Shown one piece after another: positions 4,192 to 55,828 of a stretch of 64,000 bases of DNA (its first letter is position 1; each line of letters opens with the position of its first letter). The translations under genes were made by a program, and so were the position numbers. Origin of the DNA: an uncultured delta proteobacterium (GTDB taxonomy: Bacteria; Desulfobacterota; Desulfomonilia; UBA1062); NCBI GenBank assembly GCA_963752595.1, contig CAVVYZ010000009.1, forward strand, positions 32,001-96,000, read 5' to 3'. The notes beneath the pieces were generated by a model. It was not told the origin of the DNA and made no database searches. It saw only the letters and a list, made by a program, of their open reading frames with translations.

Positions 4192-4572
4192 CTAATCCTT
4201 TGCATTCCCTGTTTCATCAGGTACTGCCACGATCCCCCATACCCCGAAGCAGACCATGCCGACCGTGATCCCTTTGAATGCCCAGAAGCAGCAGAACGTG
4301 ACTGAGCCCATGGAATAGAGCTCTTCAGCCTGGGGGATGGTTATGACACCCTGATAGAGCAGGATGCCCAGCAGAAGGCCGAGAATGCTTCCGATACACA
4401 CCCCTGCAGCAAGCCGATGGAAAAGTATCCGGGGGAATACGGCCTCCGGTTTGTAACGGGCACCCGGCATCGGGTCTCTGTGATGGCGCATCATCTCTTC
4501 AGCGAGACCCGTCATGCCTCCCAGGGGGGGATAAGGGACCAGTGCTTCCTGTCCGTCCGGCGTGTTATTCAT
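4192..4572 (-). CDS. Small hypothetical membrane protein (2 TM), third gene of the CWB2-like operon
   Basis: ATG overlaps the upstream gene's stop (ATGA); two hydrophobic segments; Met/His-rich N-terminus. Confidence 0.6.
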   Translation of the reverse strand: MNNTPDGQEALVPYPPLGGMTGLAEEMMRHHRDPMPGARYKPEAVFPRILFHRLAAGVCIGSILGLLLGILLYQGVITIPQAEELYSMGSVTFCCFWAFKGITVGMVCFGVWGIVAVPDETGNAKD

Positions 4573-5840
4573 TTTATCTTCTCCTTGCTTTTCAGCTCCT
4601 GCTCTGTTTCGGTCCGATTTTCTCTGCTTTCGAGCAGCTGGTCGAGCCCGGCCTGGATTCTCCAGCTGATGGTGCCATCTCCACCGACGATCCAGCCGTG
4701 GTTCAGGCGCTGCTGTCCCGGGAGAGCGGGATAAGGCCTGATGACCCGTAAAAAGTCCGCAACCGGCACAGGGATATCATCGCGGTCTACCACCAGCACT
4801 GCCGCATGCTTCCCCATATGGCTCAAGGTTGCTGCAGGCAGCACGTTCTGCCAGCCTCCCGGGCCGTTTGGGTTCACACAAATGACATTATGCCCAGCTT
4901 CGTTCATATCCCAGCCGAAAGACCTGGCGCCTTCCCATATCCATGCACCCCAATCCCGGCCTGTGTCGTGAAAGCCTGCAAAGCGGGCACTGATCTCCGG
5001 GAGGGAACCGCCCGGTATCCTGATCAAATGGCCATACGATCCGAGCTCATGGGCGACATGTTCCGGGATCACCGTCCCATCCCCGAAAAGGTAGAGCCAC
5101 GGTCCGTTCATACGCCGTTTCAGGATTCTCTTCGTCTCCTCCGGGATTTCCCCGTTCGTTACAAAGGCGAGCCCGTCACCCATGTGGGCATTCCAGAAAA
5201 CACCCGGTAAGGAGGGCATCAGGTTGTCGAGATTGGCTATGACGACCCCATTCCTGTGGTCGCCGTGCATGGTCGAGGTCCAGTTATCCAGCTTTTCCGA
5301 AAGCGCTGCGGCATCGGGCGCCTTCAGCACCCTTATATTAAGCCCAAGGCTTCGAACCTCTTTACGCACTTCATCCCCGATGGTCCCCACCAGGTAGGCC
5401 TGCGTATTCCCGTCCATCATCACCCCTTCCGGCTTGAGGCGTATGATCTCCGAGCGGGTCAGGGCCGGGATGACATCCTCTTCCACATAGAGAAGCGGGG
5501 CATTGAGGGGAAAGTGCTGCACCCTGCTCGCGGCGAGCATTGCCTCGGCAAGGTTGTTCCGGTTCACCAGCACCACAGCACCTGGTGAGTTCGCCTCTTC
5601 GTTTGCCGGGTACATGAGCTGTGAAACGGCAACTGCCGTTTCAACCGGATCATCCGATCCGATGCGGCCCGTATTCACCGTGACAAGCCCCTGATCGACC
5701 GGGAGCGGCATGGAGGCACCCAGCTCCTGTTCAGGCTTCAGGACGGCCTTCTCATAGGAGATTATGCCTGCGAGGATTGCCATCGAGGCCAATGCTGTGC
5801 CGGACAGAATCAGGAGAGTCGATGTGTATCGCCAATGCAT
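4569..5840 (-). CDS. Membrane-anchored protein with cell wall-binding repeat 2 (CWB2)-like repeats
   Basis: Probable start MHWRYTST at 5840 (the ORF-track extension overlaps the upstream gene); N-terminal TM; repeats such as GRIGSDDPVETAVAVSQ...VVLVN...LNAPLLYV. Confidence 0.65.
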   Translation of the reverse strand: MHWRYTSTLLILSGTALASMAILAGIISYEKAVLKPEQELGASMPLPVDQGLVTVNTGRIGSDDPVETAVAVSQLMYPANEEANSPGAVVLVNRNNLAEAMLAASRVQHFPLNAPLLYVEEDVIPALTRSEIIRLKPEGVMMDGNTQAYLVGTIGDEVRKEVRSLGLNIRVLKAPDAAALSEKLDNWTSTMHGDHRNGVVIANLDNLMPSLPGVFWNAHMGDGLAFVTNGEIPEETKRILKRRMNGPWLYLFGDGTVIPEHVAHELGSYGHLIRIPGGSLPEISARFAGFHDTGRDWGAWIWEGARSFGWDMNEAGHNVICVNPNGPGGWQNVLPAATLSHMGKHAAVLVVDRDDIPVPVADFLRVIRPYPALPGQQRLNHGWIVGGDGTISWRIQAGLDQLLESRENRTETEQELKSKEKIK

Positions 5841-5851
5841 CTTTAATCTTC

Positions 5852-7609
5852 CTATATGAGCCCTGACTTGCGGCGGCTGCGGACCATAAGGCAATTGAAG
5901 GGCCATGCAACGAGAAACGCAAGAAAGACGGTGAAGAACATGACGCCGAACCAGAGAATGTTTTTCTCCCGGGGCATCATGGGGAGATTCCACATCATGA
6001 GCCACCACATGGCAGGAAACATGGCAAGCGATGCGGCAGCCATGGAAACAAGGATGACGGGCAACGCCCTGGTAAGCGCCTGTGCATACGTCTGCCCCTG
6101 GAACATGGAGAGCATGGGGGTCTGGTAGAGGGGCCATGCAATGAGCACCGCGACGACGAAATTTGCTCCCATGACGAGCACCATCGGCGACCCAAGCCAG
6201 AAGAACGGGCCCCGGCCGATTACCATGGGCAATCCGAAGAATGAGAGCACGAACCCAGTTGCCACCATGATCTGGGCCCCTATGCCGACGCTTCCGGCCG
6301 CAGCAGCCATCCCCTGGAGCCATAATGGCCTGTCCCATGCCGCCATTCCGTTGTGGTCGATTACGGGAACCCGGTATGCCAGCCGGTAGAAGAAGATCCC
6401 GAACGGCCCCAAGGCTATGGTGAGGAGCGGCCAAGACAACCTCATAACCCAGTGCATCCCGGGCAGGAACCTGGCGGCATGGAAGATGATCCACAGACTT
6501 GAGGCAAACCCCAGGGCGATCCAGGCAGAGGCGAGCATGTCCATGCCCGAAACTCCGGGGCCTTTCATCCGGTAAGGCCCGATTTCGACGGCATAGTCGG
6601 CCTGGCTCTGTGCCGTAAACGAGACCGCAGCCTCGTCACCGAGTATCCAGATATGATGGAAGGGCCCTTCCGACGGAGTCGTCCAGAAGGCCGGCCGCTG
6701 GCTCCAGAGATAGTTGTTTACAACCTGCGGGAGCTCGTGCTCATCTGTCCAGAGCAGAGGCCCGGGTTTTCCCCTCCGTGCGAGATTCGCGCTCAGGAGT
6801 GCGGTCGCAGGGTCGTTTGCCCTCGCAAGGGTAAATCCCCGGTAGCCGGTGAGCGTGCCGGAGTTGAAATCCCAACCGAAAAGGTCGTCGGGATTAAAGA
6901 ACCCGGCAAAAGCAATTGATGCCTGGGCCGGGGTTTTTCCGGATATGTGCTTCATCCCTTTTACACGCACATCCCCGAGGGCGTACAAAGGGATTTCCTG
7001 GGGAGCCTGCTTCGAATCGAACACGATAAGGTCTCCGCTGTACGCAGCCCAAGGCGCAGCAAGAAGTGCCGTAGCCGGCTCACGCTCATCCACCATGAGG
7101 GCATGGAGAGGGGGTGCATTCGCTTTTTCCAGGATGGGAAGGATATCATCCGGTCCGATATGGAGTGCACTTTGCTTTGCAAAGGCTTTATTAACCGCCA
7201 GAACCTTTTTCCCGCCAAGAAAGCGGCTGCCGCCTGGTTTGAGGCGATCAATCTCTTCCTGCACATTACCGGCTGAGGGGAGCAGAACTGCATTCAGCGG
7301 CCTCAGAAGGCTCGCTGCAGCCAGTCCTCCCTGCCAGTCTTCAGGTGCATAGAGAATGACAAGATCCGGGGTATTCGCCGGCTCGGTGGCAGGATAGACT
7401 GCGCGGCTCACTGCAGCTGCAACCTCGCCAAGATCCTTTCCGGTGAACCTGGTGGTATTCTTGGTGTTCAAGTGCATCCTCTCCTGGCCGGAGCCTTCCG
7501 GATGGATGATGTTTCTGTACGGCACGGCCAGTATTCCGGCCGTCAGGATCGCCGCAACGAGTACGGCAACGGTTGTTCCGGTGATTTTTACCCATAAAGG
7601 ATCTTTCAT
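5852..7609 (-). CDS. CWB2-like repeat protein fused to C-terminal DUF4396-like multi-TM domain
   Basis: N-terminal TM; TTRFTGKDLGEVAAAVS...LNAVLL repeats; Met/Trp-rich C-terminal helices ending FLVAWPFNCLMVRSRRKSGLI. Confidence 0.7.
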   Translation of the reverse strand: MKDPLWVKITGTTVAVLVAAILTAGILAVPYRNIIHPEGSGQERMHLNTKNTTRFTGKDLGEVAAAVSRAVYPATEPANTPDLVILYAPEDWQGGLAAASLLRPLNAVLLPSAGNVQEEIDRLKPGGSRFLGGKKVLAVNKAFAKQSALHIGPDDILPILEKANAPPLHALMVDEREPATALLAAPWAAYSGDLIVFDSKQAPQEIPLYALGDVRVKGMKHISGKTPAQASIAFAGFFNPDDLFGWDFNSGTLTGYRGFTLARANDPATALLSANLARRGKPGPLLWTDEHELPQVVNNYLWSQRPAFWTTPSEGPFHHIWILGDEAAVSFTAQSQADYAVEIGPYRMKGPGVSGMDMLASAWIALGFASSLWIIFHAARFLPGMHWVMRLSWPLLTIALGPFGIFFYRLAYRVPVIDHNGMAAWDRPLWLQGMAAAAGSVGIGAQIMVATGFVLSFFGLPMVIGRGPFFWLGSPMVLVMGANFVVAVLIAWPLYQTPMLSMFQGQTYAQALTRALPVILVSMAAASLAMFPAMWWLMMWNLPMMPREKNILWFGVMFFTVFLAFLVAWPFNCLMVRSRRKSGLI

Positions 7610-7734
7610 TCTAAGCGCCCTGCCGAACAATCATATACCCCGGAATCCCGGGGAGTTCATTTCCGGGTGAAGAGATCCGCCCGTTACCCGGAGCCCGGTT
7701 CAAAGAAAAGAGAGCAGTCTTGCTCGCTACCCCT

Positions 7735-8499
7735 TCATGGTTGGAAAAAATTCTGGGCCAGGGTGACGGCGATGTCGGACAGGAGGGTCTTCAGTGCCTC
7801 CGAGATGACAGGAATCTGTTCTTCGTTGCCGCAGGAGGCGTCAATCGACCTCTGAAACTTCTCCTGGTTATTCCCTGCCCTCCAGATGATGCGGTTGGTA
7901 CGCGTGTCTATCAGCTCCGCACGTGCCTGGGCTACAACGGCCATATGATCGTTGTAGGCATAGATATAGTGGCAGTATGGGCCGTAGCGCACGAGCCGTA
8001 TCACCACGAGATAGTCCGCTCCGTAGGCCCTGCCCAGTCCCCTGTAGTCCGCTGTTGCATAGAGGTATTCCACCAGCCCGCCGCTGAACGGGGGGAGGCT
8101 CCTTTCCGCTATATACTCATCTACTTTGAAAGATGAGAATCCCCTTTTCTTAAGCCCTGATACGAAAAGGTCCTGCACACGGGAAAATTCCCGTGCATCG
8201 AGCTCCAGTATCTCCATCTGCAGCGGCTTCATCTCTGCAATCCGCAGAGGCTGGTATTCGGCATCATCCATCCAGGGCCCCTCCGTGAAGCCGAACTGAT
8301 CCGAAACCTTCACCACGCGGGTGTTGGTCACCCCTTCCGTGATCGCCGCCGGGGGCAATGTCAGCAATATCACACCTACTCTCTTCCCTTGCTGCTGTAT
8401 CCAGAACTGGGGATCGAGATGTATGGGCCTGCCTGAGGAGCATCCTACCAGGAATAGCAACAGGAGCATCAGAGGACCTACGACAATCCTTGTCTTCAT
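7735..8499 (-). CDS. Hypothetical lipoprotein
   Basis: Start MKTRIVVG with SD AGGAGG; lipobox LVGC. Confidence 0.65.
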   Translation of the reverse strand: MKTRIVVGPLMLLLLFLVGCSSGRPIHLDPQFWIQQQGKRVGVILLTLPPAAITEGVTNTRVVKVSDQFGFTEGPWMDDAEYQPLRIAEMKPLQMEILELDAREFSRVQDLFVSGLKKRGFSSFKVDEYIAERSLPPFSGGLVEYLYATADYRGLGRAYGADYLVVIRLVRYGPYCHYIYAYNDHMAVVAQARAELIDTRTNRIIWRAGNNQEKFQRSIDASCGNEEQIPVISEALKTLLSDIAVTLAQNFFQP

Positions 8500-44603: not shown

Positions 44604-45278
44604 TTAATCTTTTTTCCTGCGGAAACCGGCAAGCCCGAGACCGGCATATGTAAAGGTCTGTGCCCCTACCACGGGAGAGAAATATGGGGTGATGGCTGCC
44701 GAATAATTCAGAGTCCCTGAAGCGAGACCGCTGTTCACGTCATAGCGGACCGGATGGTCGTCCCTGATATCCCATGTACCTGCATATGGAGCAGTCCAGA
44801 CACCCTGGTAGTTCGGCCCGTTCAAAGAATAATTGTCCCGGGCGCCGGAGAGAACATATCCCTGCTTGGTACCGGCATAATTTGAACCTATGGAGTTGGA
44901 ACCGAGGACAAATGTCCCAGGGGCAAAGGAATAAATAGTCCTTGAGCTGGTATCCACAACATAATCCCAAAAACCATCGGCCTTCAGATCGATACATAGG
45001 TCACCCGGGGTAATGGGGCCGTAATCAGCCGAATTAATATAATTGAAGGTAACGCTGTTCAGTACGCCCTCATTAACATTGACCGATCCTCCCAGGAGGT
45101 TCGGGGTACCTATAGTATCTCTTGAATTATCTGTTGTCCCCTGCGCCCAGGTACACACCCCACCGCCCCAGCCGGTCCAGTTTCCGGTGGTATCTCCGAA
45201 CCGGATTTCCAGGGAATGGGCATTGAATGCAAATAAAGCTAGAAAAACGACTGCTTGGGTAAATGTTCTCATCTTCAT
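44604..45278 (-). CDS. PEP-CTERM-type surface protein lacking the PEP motif and most of the TM helix
   Basis: Signal peptide, Thr/Asn/Gly-rich body, ends GLGLAGFRRKKD; divergent from prsK/prsR. Confidence 0.7.
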   Translation of the reverse strand: MKMRTFTQAVVFLALFAFNAHSLEIRFGDTTGNWTGWGGGVCTWAQGTTDNSRDTIGTPNLLGGSVNVNEGVLNSVTFNYINSADYGPITPGDLCIDLKADGFWDYVVDTSSRTIYSFAPGTFVLGSNSIGSNYAGTKQGYVLSGARDNYSLNGPNYQGVWTAPYAGTWDIRDDHPVRYDVNSGLASGTLNYSAAITPYFSPVVGAQTFTYAGLGLAGFRRKKD

Positions 45279-45311
45279 GTTGCGCTACTATGTAAAAGTA
45301 TTATCAATATA

Positions 45312-45550
45312 AGCAACAGATATACTATCTTACTTTCCATTTTGATTTCAATTAGTTATGAGTATCAATGACCGGAAACGTCGGTATTATTAACAAAATC
45401 GATCCAATATCTCTGGGGAGTGGATATTATTGTGGGTTTTCTCCCTTACGGGAATATTTTGTAAATGTAATTATCTTTATGATTTTCCTTTCTTTTTCCG
45501 ATACAACATGTGATTCATGCGAATCGGAGGCCCTGTAAAGTATCTCGACA
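45312..45550 (-). promoter_or_regulatory. Degenerate sigma54 promoter with candidate enhancer sites for the PEP-CTERM gene
   Basis: Minus strand TAGTAT-N5-TTGCT (45327-45312; -24 GG reads AG); IHF-like tttcaattagtta ~45346-45358; CGT-N11-ACA (45379-45395) and TGT-N11-ACA (45534-45550). Confidence 0.4.
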
Positions 45551-45596
45551 GCACGCCTCATAAATGATATAAAAATTAAAATAAAACGGCTTCTTT

Positions 45597-47672
45597 ATGG
45601 AATTATTGATATTCTCGGTGCCTGCACTGATAAGCCTTTTGGGGGGCGTGATCATTCTTGCCAGGAGTGGGGCAAGGTATGGGCGCACTATTGCGATCGG
45701 CCTCCTGTTCCTTTCTTTTACTGAAACCGCCTATGCCCTCTTTTCTCTCACAGACAGTCTGGCATTTCTGCGGATTGCATCGTTCTTCGAGGCTTCCAGC
45801 ACCGCTGCATTCCTCCTTTCAGTGACACTCATGGAAAAAGGGCTTTCCAAAAACAGAGCCCTCATAAAATGGGAGCAGTATCTGCTTTCCATTTTCTGCA
45901 TCCTGTATGGGGCTCTGGTTCTTTATCTGCCTGAACATGCGCTTTCATGGGGAATCGAGGGCGCTATCCACCTTGGGTGGATCACGAAGGTACAGTCAGT
46001 GTTTATCCTCATCAATGCGGTAATCTTCATATGGATCATGGAAAACATCCTGCGCTCCAGTACGGATGAGCAGAGACGCATCCTCAAGTATCCTGCTTTG
46101 GGCATCATTGCATTGGGGATAGCTTTTATGCTCATGGCTGTTCGCCGTCTCAGCACAATGATAGCAAGTGAAGAGATGCTCATCCTCTATTCCCTGATTT
46201 TTCTGGTGGGCATGGTCTTTGTCATCTTCTTTTCCATCCGATTCAAGCTCTTTGAGATGGATATCTTCGTGTCACGGTACATTGTCTATCACTCGCATCA
46301 CATTCCTCAGCATCGGCTCATACCTCTTGCATGGGCCTCATTATCCTCTGGATACAAAGCCTCGGCATGAGGCTTTCTTTCGTAGTGACGGGTTCTTGGT
46401 ATTCATTGCGCTTATTCTCTATCCATCCTTGTTCTTTCACCCGAGAGATGCAAAGGCGCGGCTGAAGTTCTTCATCAACACCCATTTCTTCTCCAACAAA
46501 TATGATTATCGCAAGGAATGGGGCGAGCTGAGCGGCTACCTCTCTATCGCATTCAATGAGAACCAGATCATCCATCTCACGTCTCAGGTGATCCTGGACA
46601 GCATGTACATCAACGAGCTCTCCATATGGCTGCATGGATGGCGCCTGTTTCAGCGAGCTGTTATGCATTTCCCGCATAACTCCGGCGATAAACAGATGAT
46701 CTCATGAAGAACCACTTCAGAATATTAGCTGAAGAACAATCCTTATTTCCTGCAGCAAAACTCCCAGGGCTCCCGGAGACCACCTTTGGGAAACGGTTAC
46801 AAACGGTCAGAGCCATTTTTAGATAAAAACAAGATCGAGCTCGCCGTATCCATGATGGCGGAGAATAAATGATAGGTTTTATTGCAGTGGGAAAGGAAAA
46901 TCCTGGAACACCGTATGGCCGCGACGACATCGACCTTCTCACGGCAATTGCCTCTCAGTCCAGTGCAGCCCTGATGAGCGCCCGCTATGCCCAGGAGCTG
47001 GCAGCGAACAAGGAGCTCGATGCCTATACCCGCATGTCCTCGTACGTACTCCATGACCTGAAAAATGCTGCAGGAAACCTCTCCCTGATACTTCAGAATG
47101 CGCCGAACCATATGGACAATAAGGATTTCCGCGAAGACATGCTGGATACCATTTCGCAGACTTTGAAGCGCATCGACAAGGTCATGTTCAGACTCGGCGC
47201 TATCCGCACAGAAAGCGAGCTTCCAAGAGGGTATCCACTGGAAGCATTCATTGACGGATTGCTTGCCAAGCTTTCATCCCGCCTTCAGGGTGTCTCTGTA
47301 GAAAAGTCGATCGAGACGGGGCTGGAAATAAAGACAGACATGGAAATGTTGGAGCGGGTATTGGAAAACATCATCATCAATGCCACGGAGTCGGTTTCCC
47401 ATAACGGGAAGATTCATATTCGTGCAGGCAGGAACGGACAGAAATCCTATATATCCATCATGGATGACGGAACAGGAATGACTGAGGAATTCTTGCGGGA
47501 AAAAATGTTCAAACCCTTCCAGACAACCAAGAAGAACGGTACGGGCCTTGGTCTCTGGCAGGTAAAAAACATCGTGGATCAGCTGGGCGGAACGATCAAT
47601 GTCGAGAGCAACATCGGCCAAGGCTCCCTTTTCACTATTCTTTTTCCTGATGAGTCATATTTTTTCCGATAA
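45597..47672 (+). CDS. prsK: PEP-CTERM system histidine kinase (multiple frameshifts at 46.3-46.9 kb)
   Basis: Multi-TM N-terminus, IFVSRYIVY, FINTHFFSNKYDYRKEW, GAF region, SSYVLHDLKN, FKPFQTTK, GTGLGLWQ. Confidence 0.85.
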
Positions 47673-47725
47673 AGACGGGTGTCTCGGACGATAAACAAGA
47701 TTGCAAAACCATTGAGGAACTTAAG

Positions 47726-49080
47726 ATGAGCAAGAAGCGATATACTGATCGTGGAAGATGAATCGAGCATGGCAAAACAGCTGAAATGGGGACTTGCCGA
47801 TGCCTATGACATATCCTTGCAGCAACCGCCCCCGATGCGCTTGGACTTATCCCGAAAATCCCCCCTTGTCGTCCTGCTGGACCTGGGCCTCCCCCCGACC
47901 CGGACAGGGCAACGGAAGGGACTCAATCTCCTCAAAGAGATCGTTCATATGCCTGAAAATATTAAAGTGATCGTCATTACCGGAAACACGCGAGAAGGAT
48001 GTCGCTGCCAAGGCAGTGTGGCTCGGGCGCATATGATTATCATCAGAAGCCCGTAAATATTGAAGAGCTCAAGATCGTCCTGAAACGGGCCTGCTACCTG
48101 TCCGACCTCGAACAGCACATTACCGAACTCAGGGAGGTTATATCGGAAAAAACCCAGTTCGAGGGAATGGTCGCCATTTCCCGCTCGATGATGGACCTCT
48201 TTGAAAGGGCCAAGAGTGTTGCACGCACCGATTATCCGATCCTTATCCAGGGCCAGAGCGGAACAGGAAAGGAGCGACTTGCGCAGGCTATCCACGCCCT
48301 AAGCGACCGGGCGGAAAAGCCCTTTATCATCGTCGATTGCGGGGCAATCCCTGAAAACCTGCTGGAGAGCGAGCTCTTCGGACATGAAAAAGGCTCGTTC
48401 ACAGGCGCACACGCCCGGCAGATCGGCAAGCTGGAAAGGGCGCAACAGGGAACCGTCGTCCTGGATGAGATCGGAGAGCTGCCCGCTCCTTCTCCAGGTA
48501 AAACTCCTGAGATTCCTCCAGGAGGGGACCATCGAACGGATCGGCGGCAAGGAGCCTATCAGCGTGGATGCTCGGGTCATCGCGATCACCAATGTCGACT
48601 CTCGCGGGCGGTCAAAGAGAATCTTTTCCGGGAAGATCTTTACTACCGGCTCAACGTTGTCCCGCTGATGGTACCGACACTGAAAGAACGTCCGGAAGAT
48701 ATTCCGGTCCTGGCGAAGTATTTCCTCGAGACCTATTCGCAGGAGATCGGTCCGAAATTCAAAGGCTTCAGCCCAGAGGCCATGGATGCGATGACAAGCT
48801 ATGACTGGCCGGGAAATGTCCGCGAGATGCAGAACAGGATACGCCGCGGCGTGGTCATGGCGGAAGGGGATTTTATCGAGCCGAGCGATATCGACCTGCA
48901 GGCATCCGGCCAGGAGATCAAGACTCTCAAACAGTTACGGGATGAAGCGGAGATAAAAGCGATCAGCAGGCCCTTGCCCGGAACAATTACAACATCACGC
49001 GTGCTGCGCACGAGCTGGATATCAGCAGGCCGACCCTGCACGATCTCCTGAAAAAACACGACATCCAGATTCAGAAATGA
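47726..49080 (+). CDS. prsR: PEP-CTERM-box sigma54-dependent response regulator (multiple frameshifts)
   Basis: [57 protein letters not shown] across frames. Confidence 0.85.
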
Positions 49081-49111
49081 CGTTCCGCCGGGGATAAAGC
49101 CTGTCGCCGCT

Positions 49112-49351
49112 TTATGGCCGGTCAGACATAAGGGTGAGCAGATCCTCCTTCAGCGACTTGATCTGCCGGTGCTTCTCCAGATATATCTGCTCAAACCGGT
49201 CAAACCTCCTAGTGAGCTCTATAATCTCATTCTCCAGAGTCTTGATCCTCTCGGACAACGACGCGAGCCCTGACTTGGCATCGACGTCGGATGAGATATC
49301 CTCCATAAGATCGAGGAGGTCGCTCACCTTTTTCGAGGTATCAGGATCCAT
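49112..49351 (-). CDS. Small coiled-coil protein (79 aa), last gene of the pom-like operon
   Basis: Start overlaps the upstream gene's end; SD GAGGT; heptad pattern LSERIKTLENEIIELTRRFDRFE. Confidence 0.6.
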   Translation of the reverse strand: MDPDTSKKVSDLLDLMEDISSDVDAKSGLASLSERIKTLENEIIELTRRFDRFEQIYLEKHRQIKSLKEDLLTLMSDRP

Positions 49352-50291
49352 ACACCTCTCGTTTGGCTTTCAGTCGGATATGGGCAAGAGAGGAATATAC
49401 CCGGTCGAGGGCATTCTTGAGCTCCATCGATTTCCTGCTCGAGGGGCTCACGCTTCTGATATTCCTCATCCAGCTTTGACTCCAGCTCAAAAACCCTGCT
49501 GTTGCTGATGGAGAGATCCCGCTCGAGGATGGATACCTTGACATCCATCTTCGCCTTTTCATGGATTTCTTTATTGAGCTTGCTGAACCGGCATTCCACG
49601 TCTGTGCGCCGGGCAGTTTCCTGCTCTATGGTAATTGTCTTTTCTTCGAGAAGGCCGACCATGTTCTGGATGTAGAGGTCGGCGTCTTCGAGCTGCTCAT
49701 TCAGAAAATCGATCTCCCTCTCGATCAAGGTGTTGTCGAGGGTGCCCTTTTCGATCTCGGCCTGATGCTTGCTTTGAGCCGTGCGTTTTCCCGCGCAACC
49801 TCTTCGACGGCGGATGAGCTCTTCTCCAGCTGCTGCTGGATCGCCTTTTTTTCAAAGATCATCTGGGTGAAATCAGAGTTGATATCCTTGATGGTCTCCA
49901 CAGCCTTTACGATGCTCTCGTTCTTCTGAAGAACAGCGCTCTGCAAAACAGGCTCGGCTTTGACCTCTCTCCGGAGTTCAATCCTGGCCGCAGGTGTGAT
50001 CTTCTGCTTATTATCAGGCCGGTCTCGATAGTGATCTCCTGCTTCTCTTCAGCAAGGGCTTCAGCCACGATTTTCGGTTTTTCTTTCCCTTTGGATTCCA
50101 CAACGATTTCCCGGGCCTCTTCGGCAGCAGGAGCTGCCGCCTCTCTCCCGGTGTTTAAGGTCTCCCGGGTTCGGCTTTTCCTCTTCCTGGGCCTTCAGCA
50201 GGACGGGATCAACATTCCATGGCCTGTTAGGCCTTTTCTTCTGTATTTTGGGCATCTTTTCAGCAACACTTCTATCGAAACCGTCTTTCAT
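49341..50291 (-). CDS. PomX-like protein: basic N-terminal peptide, disordered linker, C-terminal coiled coil (several frameshifts)
   Basis: Fragments 50061-50297, 49907-50101, 49725-49946, 49324-49728 and 49341-49562 tile one gene; N-terminus MKDGFDRSVAEKMPKIQKKR. Confidence 0.6.
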
Positions 50292-50387
50292 ACACATTTT
50301 CTCCTCAGGTCATTATAGCCGCATCTTTAACGGTCATTTCCATTATGGTCATTACGTGGTGGAATGATAAATAAATCATAAATCTCC

Positions 50388-51346
50388 TTAAAAGGCAATC
50401 GGCAGGTTGGGATAAATTTCTTTGATGAACGAATTGATGTCCACGGCACCGCGGTTGTTCGGCGCATACTGGTGGATGGGCATTCCCATGCTCGCCGCCT
50501 CGGCAATCTTTGTATCCTGCCTGATGATGGTCTTCATGAGATATCCACTGTAGTGCTTCTCCAGAGCATCCTTTGACCTCAGGCAGATATTGTGGGATGC
50601 ATTGAAATGGTTCAGGAAGATATAGATGTTATCCAGCAGAAAGTCGAAGTCCTCTTCTATGGTGGTGAGGGTCTCGAAGAGGATCTTGAGCCCATGGTAG
50701 GAGAGAAAGTCCGCCAGGACAGGGACGAAGAGTTCATTGCTCGCCAGGATGCCGTTCAGGTTCAGGAGCCCTATGGAGGGAGAAGCATCCATGATGATGA
50801 TGTCATAATCGTCCTGGATGAGCGCCAGACCTTTCTTCAGCCGCAGCTCGCGGGCATTCATGGAGGTCAGGGACAGCTCGACGGGAGAGAGATCAAGGTT
50901 CGCGGGGATGAGCTTGAGGTTCTTCATCTTGGTATTGAGATCACATCATGGATATCCATCCGCTCGATGAGGACATTGTAGAGCGTGGCATCAAACGAGC
51001 TGTGGTCGATCCCGAGGCACTGGGTGAGATGTCCCTGGGGGTCGAGGTCGATCATGAGTACATTCATGCCGAGCTGGGCGAGCCGGAAGGCGTAAAATGC
51101 CGAAACACTCGTCTTCCCTGTTCCCCCTTTGAAATTCAGGAAGATCTGCCTGCGCTTGGTGGAAACAAGCGGCGGCTTCCCGAGGGCATGCAGGTACGCA
51201 GGATTTCATGGGGTGCATACACCCGTATTCCGTCAGCCATCTGGGGTTGCGGCAGCGTTCCTTCTGTCTCCATCTTGAGCAGCGCAGCCTTTGAGATCCC
51301 GAGCAGAGAGGCAAATTCTTTGGCTGTATACAGCTGGCTGCTCCAT
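50388..51346 (-). CDS. pomZ: ParA/MinD-family ATPase with N-terminal HTH-like extension, PomZ-like (frameshifted)
   Basis: YTAKEFASLLGISK; RRQIFLNFKGGTGKTS; IDLDPQGH; FVPVLADFLSYHGLKILFET; TIIRQDTKIAEA. Confidence 0.75.
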
Positions 51347-51347
51347 C

Positions 51348-52021
51348 TTATATCCTTTCTCTCATGAGTTCCCACCAGCCTTGCCACTTTGCAATGATCC
51401 ATTCGAATTCGTCATCCGAAGCGCCGCATCGGCTCGCCGAAATCCTCTCCGGTGAGCCTCTTCAATGTCCTGATTGCCTGCATCCTGACATCGAACGTGC
51501 TGTCCTCCAGCGCCTTGATCACATGCTGGATCTTCTTCCTTACTACCCCATATCCCCACCAGCCGCAGACGCATCCTTTCTCACCATGGGATCAGGATCC
51601 TCAAGGGCGAGTACGGACTACGGCCTCCAGAGCTGATTTGTCATTGATCCAGAAGAGATAGCTGATGACCCTCCTGCGGACATACGGATCGCTGTCGCCA
51701 AGCCATCGTGATGCCGTCTTCAATGGTAAATGCCCCTCCTGAACAGATAGCGGATGGCCGAGCCGCCTCACCTTGGGGTCGGGAGCTTTCGGATGCGGCA
51801 CGGAAAACGGATGAGAAATCGTTTTCGTCATCGAACAGGATGTCATAGAGACCGTAGCCGTCGGCCTTGTCGGCATCTTTCAGAATGGATGCAATGAGCT
51901 CACCGGAACAGGAAGCGTCCTTGAGGAGCGCCTTGGCTGCCAATTTCTTGATTTCAGGGTCGCTGTCTTTCAGATCAACTGAGATCTGGTCCAAACCTAC
52001 CCGTTTCAAGAACCCCTCCAT
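51348..52021 (-). CDS. HEAT-repeat protein (PomY position), frameshifted
   Basis: LKDSDPEIKKLAAKAL, DPKVRR, LGDSDPYVRRRVI, ALEDSTFDVRMQAIRTL; stop TAA 1 nt before the ParA ATG. Confidence 0.7.
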
Positions 52022-52119
52022 TTTCTTTGAGTGGCAAGTATAAAGGGTAATGGAAGCGGGAGTCAAGAGTATCTAAAAAACTGTTTAACCTTTGTTCCAA
52101 TAATGCTAGCTTCACCCCC

Positions 52120-54272
52120 ATGAACAAGATTCGAACAGCTGAAATTGCAGTCATGGCGGGCATTCCCATGGTGCTCACCTATTCGGTACCCGACGGGATG
52201 TCCGTCGTAAACGGCTCACGGGTCGTCGTCCCCTTACGGCAGGCCGAGAAAGTCGGGGTGATTATATCATCAAAAGAAAGGCGGAAGAAATCCCCGGTCT
52301 CAAACCTATTATAAGCATTCTTGACGAAAAGCCTCTGATCCTTCAGGAGCTCCTGGATCTGCTCCTGTGGACATCCCGCTACTACCATTCACGCCCCGGC
52401 GCGACCATATCGCTTGCGTTTCCGCCATATCTCCGCCAGGCACGGGCAGGGATTTTTCCCGACGAATTCAGGATATTCAGGACAGGTACCGGCAAAGGTG
52501 TTGTGGGGAAGAAGCAGCACGAGATACTGGAATCCGTTCCCGAACAGGGTATTTCTACCGAAAGGTTCAGGGAGATGTTTCCCGGCAACACGTCATCGCT
52601 CAATGCACTCATCAAGAGGGGATTTCTGGAGCGGAAGCCGTTCATCCCCGCTCAGTCCGCACCAATCATAAGAAATGCCGCCGCCGTTCAATATACGGCC
52701 GAGCAGAAAGCTGCCATCAGAGAGATCACGGGCACCCTTGAGGAGAAGAAGTTCAAGACCTTCCTTCTCCACGGCATCACGGGCTCCGGAAAGACCGAGG
52801 TATATCTCGCCTGCGCCATGAAGACCCTCGAAATGGGCCGCTCCGTACTTTATCTGGTCCCCGAGATCGCACTTACTCCCCAGACCATATCCATGATCCA
52901 GAAGCGAATCCCCTGCGACATGGCAGTATTCCATTCCGGGCTCCCGTCTGCTGCCAGGGCACGGGAATTCTTAAAAGCCTCCCGCTCGCAGGCAAGCTTT
53001 GTCCTCGGCACGAGGTCGGCGATATTTTCGCCCTTGAAAAACCTCGGCCTGATCATCGTCGATGAAGAGCACGACCACAGCTATAAACAGGAGGAGGGAA
53101 TCCCGTATAATGCAAGGGATTTGAGCATCCTCAGGGCAAAGAATAACCAGGCTGTGGTTATTCTGGGCTCTGCAACCCCGAGCATGGATGCATATATCAA
53201 ATCAGCACACGGAGGCGTGAATCTTATCACGATGTCTTCACGGATCGGCAACGCGAGCCTCCCGGATATCGATGTCGTTGACATGAGAGGAGTCGACAGC
53301 CCAGTGTCCGACCAGCTCTTTGACGCCATACGCGCTACACTAGCCAGGAATGAGCAGGCGCTTCTTTTCATCAACAGGCGAGGGTTCTCTTCGGCACTGG
53401 TCTGCCCCGGGTGCGGGACAACGTTGAAGTGCATCCGGTGCGACAGGAGCCTTACCTATCACCGGGCCAAAGGTATCGGCCTGTGCCATTACTGCGGATA
53501 CTCCCTGGCACTGCCCGAGATCTGTCCGAAATGCGGCTGTCTCGATATGAGGCGGATGGGCATGGGCACGGAGAAGATCATGCATACGGTAAGCGAGCTC
53601 TTCCCAGAAGCCAGGATCTTGAGGATGGATTCCGACGAGATCACCACCACGAAAAAATTGACCAATGCCCTTGACGCCATCAGAAGCAGAGATGTGGATA
53701 TCATCGTCGGAACCCAGATGATCTCGAAAGGCCATGACTTTCCCCACCTCACCCTTGTGGGGGTCATGCACGCGGAACAGCTTCTCTACATGCCCGATTT
53801 CAGAGCTGGAGAGCGCACGTTCCAGCACGTGGTGCAGGTGGCCGGCCGGGCAGGCCGACGCGCAGCCGATACCAAGGTCATCATCCAGACCCTTATCCCC
53901 GATCACCCGCTGATACAGTCGATTTCCGAGTATGACTACAAGGGCATGATCACTTCCGAACAGGAGGTCAGGAAGGCCTCCGGGTTCCCGCCTTTCAGCC
54001 ACATGGCGCGGTGCATCTTCTCTTCGACGAGCAACGAGCTTGCCATGAAGACGATCAACGAGGTGGCGGCCAGACTGAACCCCCGGGAAATCACGCTCAT
54101 GGGCCCGGCCCCTGCGCCCATTTCGCTGCTGCGGAATACTTACCGGTGGCATGTGATCCTCACATCCAAAGACCGGGGCAAGCTCCACGCAGCGCTTGAC
54201 CGCCTCGAGCGCATGCAAACCCCGTCCGGTGTTCGGGTGAAGATCGATGTAGATCCGTATACGATGCTCTAA
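52120..54272 (+). CDS. priA: Primosomal protein N' (5' part frameshifted)
   Basis: LTYSVP...RVVVP; LHGITGSGKTEVY, PEIALTPQ, DEEH, four CxxC, GTQMISKGHDFP, QVAGRAGR, DVDP. Confidence 0.95.
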
Positions 54273-54351
54273 TACTCCTTATTGATGCAGGAGTATGAGC
54301 CTCTGGACGAGCCGCGCCCGTTCTTTGAGCTTCAGGCTCATGAAGTAAACA

Positions 54352-54444
54352 TGGCGGAGAGAGAGGGATTCGAACCCTCGGTAGAGCTTATGACCCTACA
54401 TTCGCTTAGCAGGCGAACGCCTTCGTCCACTCGGCCATCTCTCC
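54352..54444 (-). tRNA. tRNA-Ser(GCT)
   Basis: GGAGAGATGGCCGAGTGG...CTGCTAA...long variable arm...GTTCGAATCC...CTCCGCCA; CCA encoded. Confidence 0.95.
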
Positions 54445-54450
54445 AGCCCT

Positions 54451-54538
54451 TGGCGGAGGGAGCAGGATTCGAACCCGCGGTACCTTACGGTACAACGGTT
54501 TTCAAGACCGCCGCCTTCAACCACTCGGCCATCCCTCC
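54451..54538 (-). tRNA. tRNA-Ser(TGA)
   Basis: GGAGGGATGGCCGAGTGG...CTTGAAA...GTTCGAATCC...CTCCGCCA; CCA encoded. Confidence 0.95.
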
Positions 54539-54553
54539 GGTGCGACTATCTCA

Positions 54554-55828
54554 TTAACTGATTGGTGTAATGAGGTCAAGCCTCATGTAAGGCTTCAAAA
54601 CCTCCGGCACCATAACGGTCCCGTCCTCTTTCTGATAGTTCTCGAGGATTGCAGCCAGGGTCCTGCCCACGGCGAGGCCGCTACCGTTTAAGGTATGGCA
54701 GAGCTCTGTCTTCTTTGCCTGTTTCGATTTGTAGCGGATCTGGCCCCTGCGTGCCTGGAAGTCTTCGAAATTGCTGCAGGAAGAGATCTCCCGGTAGACC
54801 CCCTGGGCGGGCATCCAGACCTCCAGGTCATAGGTCTTAGAGGAAGAGAATCCGAGATCGCCCGTGCACAGGCACACGACCCGGTAATGGAGCCCAAGCT
54901 TCTTGAGAATGTCCTCGGCTTCGTTCGTGAGCTCTTCCAGGTCCGTGTACGACCTGTCGGGATGCGCAAACCTCACGAGTTCCACCTTGTTGAACTGGTG
55001 AAGCCTGATGAGACCCCTTGTGTCCTTGCCGTAGGAGCCGGCCTCCCTCCTGAAGCAGGGGGTATAGGATACGAGCTTTACGGGCAGATCTTCTTCATTG
55101 AGGGTTTCGGACCGGTAGAGATTGGTTACCGGTACCTCGGCAGTGGGCACCAGGAAATAGTCGTTGTTGGTCGCGAAGAGTTCCTCTTCGAACTTCGGGA
55201 GCTGTCCCGTTGCGGTCATACTCTCCCGGTTCACCATGAAAGGAGTCAGAACCTCTTTGCAGCCGTGCTCTCTGGTGTGGACATCGAGCATCAGATTAAT
55301 GATAGCCCTTTCCATAAGAGCCCCCGTGCCCCAGTTGATAGCAAAGCGTGCCCCGGTGATCTTTGCTGCGCGTTTGAAATCGAGAATACCGAGCCCTTCT
55401 CCGATATCCCAGTGATCCTTGGGGGTAAAGGAAAACTCCGGCTTCACGCCCCACGATCGAACTATCGCATTATCACTCGAATCCCTGCCCACCGGGACGC
55501 TTTCATGGGGAATGTTGGGAATCTCCATGATGAACCGGTTCATGGCCTCTTCCACTCCCCTGATCTCGCCGTCAATGGATTTGATCCTTTCGGACATCGA
55601 GCGCATCTCGTTCTTTTCCGCTTCGAGACCCGTGCCGGAAGATTTCTCCTTGGCGATGCGGGAAGAGAACTGGTTCCGTTTTGCCTTGAGGTCGTCGGCC
55701 TCCTGGATGAGAGCCCTCCTTTTTGTGTCCTGATCGAGGAGAAAATCAAGCCCCAGACTCGAACCGCGATTCTCAAGCGCCCTTTTTACCAAGTTGATGT
55801 TTTGCCTGATGGTTTTTATGTCTAGCAT
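54554..55828 (-). CDS. serS: Serine--tRNA ligase
   Basis: [54 protein letters not shown]. Confidence 0.98.

Follow-up and report, generated by a model that had tools for sequence, protein, structure and literature searches.

A four-gene operon encoding a PomZ-like ATPase in a Desulfomonilia-class bacterium, a candidate reduced Pom system

A four-gene operon in a frameshifted assembly

A 64,000-nucleotide stretch of contig CAVVYZ010000009.1 from an uncultured delta proteobacterium (hereafter the window) was found to contain an operon of four co-oriented minus-strand genes (52009-49112; Table 1), the second of which encodes a relative of PomZ, the ATPase of the PomXYZ division-site positioning system. 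Three-frame translation of 49000-52150 displayed the genes in the order that a first-pass annotation had claimed for reading frames hidden by frameshifts, together with the ATPase segments and the gene 3 start quoted there. The order HEAT protein, ATPase, PomX-like protein is that of pomY-pomZ-pomX in the myxobacterial-type locus L101, the order that the annotation had given for Myxococcus xanthus. A single base lies between genes 1 and 2, and the end of gene 3 shares 11 bases with gene 4. Gene 1 likely starts at the TTG at 52009, which is preceded by GGAGG; the ATG at 52021, proposed earlier as the start, overlaps GGAGG, is missing from most relatives compared, and was set aside.

Genes 1-3 carry many non-triplet indels relative to the related locus L002, with 61 non-triplet gaps in 8,907 aligned columns across 45466-54340. 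These indels are most likely assembly errors, because the prsK/prsR-like neighbors are affected at equal density and a related-strain short-read contig lacks the extra base at three places in gene 1. The two DNA sequencing runs contain a small share of the organism (contigs cover ∼12 of 30 bins), and no RNA run is listed. Protein analyses used intact relatives, mainly locus L001 (P0001-P0004); in intact relatives, gene 1 encodes 218-221, the ATPase gene 319, gene 3 250-354, and gene 4 76-86 residues. Over residues 49-319, the window ATPase shares 92-95% identity with P0001.

Table 1. Positions of the operon genes and of the candidate promoter in the window
Feature	Position	Strand	Description
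Gene 1	51348-52009	-	HEAT-repeat-only protein of ∼218 aa occupying the pomY position; frameshifted in assembly
Gene 2	50388-51346	-	PomZ-like ATPase of the ParA/MinD type (319 aa) that has a MerR/Xis-like helix-turn-helix at its N terminus; frameshifted in assembly
Gene 3	49341-50291	-	PomX-like protein: N-terminal peptide, variable linker, ∼190-residue coiled-coil-like C terminus; frameshifted in assembly
Gene 4	49112-49351	-	79-aa acidic single-helix protein, N-terminal 24 residues conserved; intact
Candidate sigma-70 promoter	52037-52066	-	-35 and -10 boxes, 18-base spacer; 10/12 consensus matches

ATPase kinship and the PomX-type peptide

Myxococcus xanthus PomZ was represented by two stand-ins, P0353 (Myxococcaceae label) and P0398 (Archangium violaceum), which match 24/24 and 23/24, respectively, of the PomZ residues named in 10.1101/2025.12.01.691545, with the same numbering (this preprint and the PMC articles are cited throughout from their accessible parts). 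For both queries, the top match in the genome was this locus (48-57% identity; E 1.6e-71 for P0398), ahead of the Soj encoded on contig C17 (E 1e-33, 30%), and the likeness to PomZ noted in the first-pass annotation takes the form of a reciprocal best match. P0001 exhibits 43-51% identity to 15 myxobacterial-type proteins, as compared to 32% to the genome's own Soj. By alignment, the ATPase conserves the catalytic and DNA-binding positions of PomZ, with G62, D90, and K268 each found 12 positions further on (G74, D102, and K280 of P0001); equivalents of these three residues are also kept in generic ParA and are therefore weakly diagnostic of PomZ. A further 21 modeled pocket residues are called PomZ-specific, as against ParA and MinD, in 10.1101/2025.12.01.691545. 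Identical residues at these positions numbered 16-21 in 15 myxobacterial-type proteins, 11-12 in 11 Desulfomonilia proteins, and 10-12 in 10 Syntrophaceae-type proteins, versus 2-7 in 22 generic ParA proteins and 4 in the genome's Soj (3-16 in 17 other PomZ-like representatives, whose genomic context is not known). Most of the non-identical pocket residues in the Desulfomonilia ATPases are similar ones, and their score is intermediate between those of myxobacterial proteins and generic ParA. Automatic labels agree in name, the nearest Atlas clusters being called PomZ (0.98-0.99) and the UniRef entry of P0001 'Cell division protein PomZ'.

In a careful tree of 45 rows, drawn from a larger 90-row quick tree with the longest branches left out, a 100/100 branch separates 32 PomZ-like from 13 Soj-like rows; in the quick tree, the same split received 96 in the Shimodaira-Hasegawa-like approximate likelihood ratio test. 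The ParA/MinD phylogeny proposed as a check by the first-pass annotation thus groups the ATPase with PomZ, apart from Soj and plasmid ParA. Ten Desulfobacterota rows form a 90/85 group in the careful tree, outside a 100/99 group of myxobacterial and Longimicrobiales-type proteins. Among the other PomZ-like ATPases, P0126 (labeled Candidatus Riflebacteria) branches beside the myxobacterial clade, and P0130, P0133, and P0138 carry an additional lysine-rich disordered region together with a short coiled coil in the same polypeptide, resembling a scaffold-ATPase fusion.

The modeled ATPase assumes a Soj-like fold (template modeling score 0.9 over the target), and sequence and fold searches of PDB returned ParA/Soj entries, none of them named PomZ. 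The deviant Walker A motif and a basic DNA-binding position are likewise shared with the chromosomal Soj/ParA that acts with ParB, whereas the ∼32% identity, the separate clade, and the absence of a ParB partner set the protein apart. Its N-terminal extension was modeled as helix-helix-hairpin-helix (predicted local distance difference test [pLDDT] at least 90) and gave sub-threshold MerR/HTH_17 Pfam matches, in keeping with the helix-turn-helix (HTH)-like extension described at first. Plasmid type Ia ParA/RepA proteins also carry an HTH extension before the ATPase domain, and a RepA model matched with E 2e-34; in contrast to that family, the score was 119 bits versus a cut-off of 348, the locus belongs to the chromosomal core, ParB/RepB is absent, and the best plasmid match reaches 37% identity. 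An operon that organizes or segregates the chromosome as a ParABS auxiliary, its scaffold acting on the nucleoid and its N-terminal HTH binding specific DNA, would be consistent with a ParA fold nearest to Soj structures, with an HTH like that of plasmid RepA/type Ia ParA, and with a ribbon-helix-helix (RHH) gene that precedes the operon in one Syntrophaceae-type locus. We nevertheless consider this improbable: a canonical Soj-ParB pair lies elsewhere in the genome (which also encodes MreB), none of the four operon proteins matched a ParB-type family, myxobacterial PomZ, which acts in division, has a similar though shorter N terminus, and the RHH gene, used as a query, found no match in the window's genome.

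Gene 3 begins with a sequence resembling the 22-residue PomX activator peptide printed in PMC7993993, in which Lys13 and Arg15 are essential. The peptide as given in the first-pass annotation is identical to the printed one, and the gene 3 N terminus aligns with it in register. When every start-codon peptide in the genome (145,159 in all) was scored, that of gene 3 came second with the published peptide alone, second with three myxobacterial-type peptides, and first with pooled sets. F5 and P14 are invariant in 43/43 relatives, and positions 12 and 15 are basic in every one of them. Downstream, a variable linker accounts for the spread of lengths among relatives (236-354 residues), while the conservation profile displays a conserved C terminus; this layout of linker and C-terminal coiled coil fits PomX by architecture only. 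The coiled coil matched its Syntrophaceae-type homologs (hhalign 97%). Because the C terminus did not match the PomX-type profile, the predicted kinship of gene 3 to PomX is drawn from its peptide, its architecture, and its place in the operon.

Distribution of the operon and its partner genes

Relatives were collected in a GTDB genome scan, from which the best 80 of 101 relatives were kept (L001-L080). Their labels read Desulfomonilia, Syntrophaceae, Thermodesulfobacteriota, unclassified Deltaproteobacteria, and in some cases Bacteriovoracaceae, and one genome of the same phylum encodes an ATPase identical to a Syntrophaceae-titled record. Myxococcota labels on some 'Deltaproteobacteria bacterium' records and the Bacteriovoracaceae titles were not used; NCBI taxonomy keeps Deltaproteobacteria outside Myxococcota. 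The host, suspected from the start to be non-myxobacterial, is of the class Desulfomonilia: the cluster of P0001 is labeled Desulfomonilia, and P0001 is encoded with 100% identity by one genome of the genus to which the window belongs. The complete four-gene order is found in 41 of the 47 closest loci (L001-L047), and the other 6 are truncated where a contig or locus ends, so that the synteny survey proposed earlier gave a positive answer and the order, in the loci compared, is more than chance. The ATPase was detected in 51/52 genomes of the host family, with one match each and including 34/34 high-quality ones, as well as in 19/401 genomes of a phylum sample (4 families); it was found in 0/70 genomes of the class's other (sister) family.

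The patchy occurrence in the phylum, the many frameshifts in this assembly, and the weak likeness to plasmid RepA models could together suggest a partition cassette from a mobile element or a remnant in decay whose frameshifts are real. Such an origin is highly improbable and largely refuted by relatives that are intact and 74-95% identical, by neighbors that are frameshifted equally, by the adjoining priA in 40/47 of the closest loci, and by best plasmid and phage matches of 37% and 36% identity.

In Syntrophaceae-type loci (L048-L080), the order is HEAT gene, ATPase gene, a gene for a 110-residue peptide-bearing protein (31/33 loci), and a gene 3 homolog, without gene 4. Two tandem proteins with a PomX-type N-terminal peptide are therefore encoded, for example at L057:6536-6868 and 6931-7746. 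The 110-residue protein, which has a basic residue at position 15 in 0/29 cases, may be a regulator or a decoy. In L057, the small RHH gene (4558-4722; Pfam RHH_3, E 2e-17) is located ahead of the HEAT gene; an RHH nucleoid protein, CdbA, is reported from M. xanthus. A three-gene form with HEAT gene, ATPase gene, and gene 3 homolog, and no small partner, was seen in L067/L119 (G007) downstream of ruvA/ruvB-like genes (assigned by eye). Another set of three-gene Pom-like loci (L106:1016-5301, L107-L112, and L114; L106 proteins are labeled Longimicrobiales) encodes a PomY-like protein with a coiled coil, a long acidic linker, and few HEAT repeats, and no terminal domain was seen in the PomY-like proteins of these loci. 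A basic residue at position 13 is missing from 1/12 PomX-type peptides of three-gene loci as well.

Gene 4 was modeled as one helix (residues 3-74, pLDDT 91) with a conserved N terminus. Strong matches were found in 49/52 family genomes and none in 12 other PomZ-positive genomes; by these searches, gene 4 is family-specific. It has no family in Pfam, NCBIfam, or Atlas, the best Atlas match (0.88) being unnamed. Two possible identities were considered. That of a detached PomY alpha5 helix was rejected on sequence: gene 4 shares the spacing of V, L, and M with alpha5 at residues 9-16, but its mean score of 6.0 falls short of what the remaining operon proteins reach by chance at best (8-12). Compared with the PomY coiled coil, it reached 4.9% in hhalign, and no homology was shown.

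On the upstream side, priA (divergent from the operon) and serS were confirmed by Pfam at 52120-55828. On the other side, at 44604-49080, a gene with a PEP-CTERM-like tail and a histidine kinase/sigma-54 response regulator pair converge on the operon and are frameshifted too; the pair presumably resembles PrsK/PrsR. The promoter search behind the candidate site of Table 1 returned 3 sites versus 2.3 expected in shuffles. A pattern derived from that site, and drawn only after the site was seen, occurs upstream of gene 1 in 41/46 relatives versus 13/4,834 background windows.

The HEAT protein, possible cargo, and interpretation

PomY comprises a coiled coil, seven HEAT repeats, a disordered stretch that includes alpha5, and a terminal domain, its activator function mapping to residues 496-682 (10.1101/2025.12.01.691545); the coiled coil is required and sufficient for condensates (PMC10307791). 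The part of the first-pass claim that stood for gene 1 is a HEAT array in the position of pomY: its intact relative P0002 matched Pfam HEAT_2 (E 2e-20), and gene 1 aligned with the PomY HEAT region at 97.4% in hhalign and with the Syntrophaceae-type HEAT protein at 99.3%. The coiled coil, alpha5, and the terminal domain were absent, and gene 1 is not the reciprocal best match of PomY. Set beside PomXYZ as described in 10.1101/2025.12.01.691545, PMC7993993, and PMC10307791, the operon is alike in the order of HEAT protein, ATPase, and peptide-linker-coiled-coil protein, in an ATPase that shares 43-51% identity with PomZ-like proteins of myxobacteria, including the catalytic and DNA-binding residues and about half of the pocket residues, and in a PomX-type N-terminal peptide on an acidic gene 3 product (pI 5.2 versus 4.9 reported). 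It is unlike PomXYZ in a HEAT protein of ∼218 aa, versus 682 for PomY, that lacks the coiled coil, disordered tail, alpha5, and terminal domain; in the acidity of gene 1 (pI 5.4 versus 9.3 for PomY); in a Met replacing Lys13; in a gene 3 coiled coil without detectable homology; in the additional 79-aa gene; in a longer HTH at the ATPase N terminus; and in a host outside Myxococcota. Because two tests that define PomY came out negative, the operon is filed as a variant that would work like the Pom system and not as a full member.

Taken together, ATPase kinship, the catalytic and DNA-binding positions, the PomX-type peptide, gene order, and single-copy core presence in the family point, at the level of sequence, to a moderately probable reading in which this four-gene operon with a close PomZ relative is a reduced Pom system positioning the FtsZ ring at midcell. 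Such a system would place the Z-ring without the condensate-forming and activating parts of PomY. More speculatively, gene 4, translationally coupled to gene 3, could supply in trans a self-associating helix that PomY carries in cis, and the ATPase would then have one activator rather than two. PomZ is reported to interact with FtsZ (PMC7993993), and FtsZ was found in 26/26 genomes searched (19 ATPase carriers and 7 non-carriers), while MinE was found in 0/26 of them and MinC in 0/19 carriers, which answers the earlier suggestion to look for a missing Min system.

Several observations weigh against a reduced Pom system that acts on FtsZ. MinC scored above the cut-off in only 30/401 genomes of the phylum, and its absence here is therefore weak evidence; 70 sister-family genomes divide without this ATPase, and no cell division gene was seen adjoining the operon. 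PomX Lys13 is not kept, position 13 of gene 3 being Met in 43/43 relatives with the basic residue one position earlier, and the gene 3 coiled coil reached 1-2% against PomX in hhalign, with a PomX profile that is shallow, mostly non-myxobacterial, and without full-length myxobacterial PomX. In the careful tree, the Desulfobacterota group shares a polytomy with several PomZ-like proteins of uncertain context, and approximately unbiased tests rejected neither sisterhood to the myxobacterial clade (p 0.45) nor branching at the base (p 0.31). Profile comparison found no homolog of the PomY coiled coil in the operon, and the PomY C-terminal disordered region, alpha5, and terminal domain matched none of its proteins. 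An unrelated HEAT protein (C9:106130; E 6e-25) outscored gene 1 (E 1e-10) on the PomY HEAT profile. Finally, a PomY variant without the coiled coil failed to co-localize with constrictions (PMC10307791).

The same missing PomY parts, being those tied to FtsZ recruitment, would be expected if the PomZ-PomX motor moved another nucleoid cargo (some other protein assembly, a landmark at the pole, or machinery for secretion or motility), with the HEAT protein and gene 4 as adaptors and FtsZ coupling acquired with the long myxobacterial PomY. Consistent with such cargo, partners differ by lineage (gene 4 here, the 110-residue peptide-bearing protein in most Syntrophaceae-type loci, neither in L067), and the Discussion of PMC7993993 describes activator peptides grafted onto varied cargo domains. 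McdAB and other organelle-positioning pairs, including that of the carboxysome, resemble the operon in a nucleoid-binding ParA-type ATPase and a coiled-coil partner with a basic N-terminal peptide; McdA is a distant match (E 1e-13), and bacterial microcompartment (BMC) shell genes were found in 0/52 family genomes (control positive in 2/14). CheA occurs in 42/52 family genomes and was not found in 4/4 genomes of genus g259 (93-97% complete), which keep the ATPase and gene 4. By these gene inventories, microcompartments and chemotaxis fit poorly as cargo, and the BMC and CheA results weigh against known alternative cargoes without showing that the cargo is FtsZ. With no candidate tracking the operon, with PomZ itself reported to interact with FtsZ, and with a near-universal single-copy presence that suits a housekeeping role, transport of another cargo is rather doubtful.

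A more far-reaching form of the reduced Pom system, which we put forward tentatively, is a minimal and possibly ancestral Pom machine with one activator, in which the Z-ring is positioned and triggered without a condensate-forming PomY, and the jobs of PomY are shared by a HEAT protein without further domains and a free-standing helix of 79 residues. If this were true, the condensate with two activators seen in myxobacteria would have been elaborated later, and part swaps with the myxobacterial system could probe the need of phase separation for positive Z-ring control. The Pom system is called conserved in myxobacteria in 10.1101/2025.12.01.691545, is placed in Cystobacterineae in PMC7993993, and is mentioned for M. 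xanthus only in the accessible parts of PMC3910319, PMC4429545, PMC11407121, PMC11725790, PMC4672049, and PMC12288465. No report of a Pom system outside myxobacteria was found in the accessible literature, which excludes Schumacher 2017, Treuner-Lange 2013, and the preprint supplements; the Desulfomonilia operon was accordingly not found in print, though UniRef names the ATPase of a relative PomZ. Published work argues that FtsZ recruitment depends on phase separation of PomY and that efficient positioning requires two activators. The operon would represent a natural version, fixed across one family of anaerobes, without exactly those PomY parts, and its proteins are small and probably tractable for testing both claims. 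For Desulfobacterota lineages, the majority of which gave no MinC match, it also offers a candidate mechanism of division-site placement.

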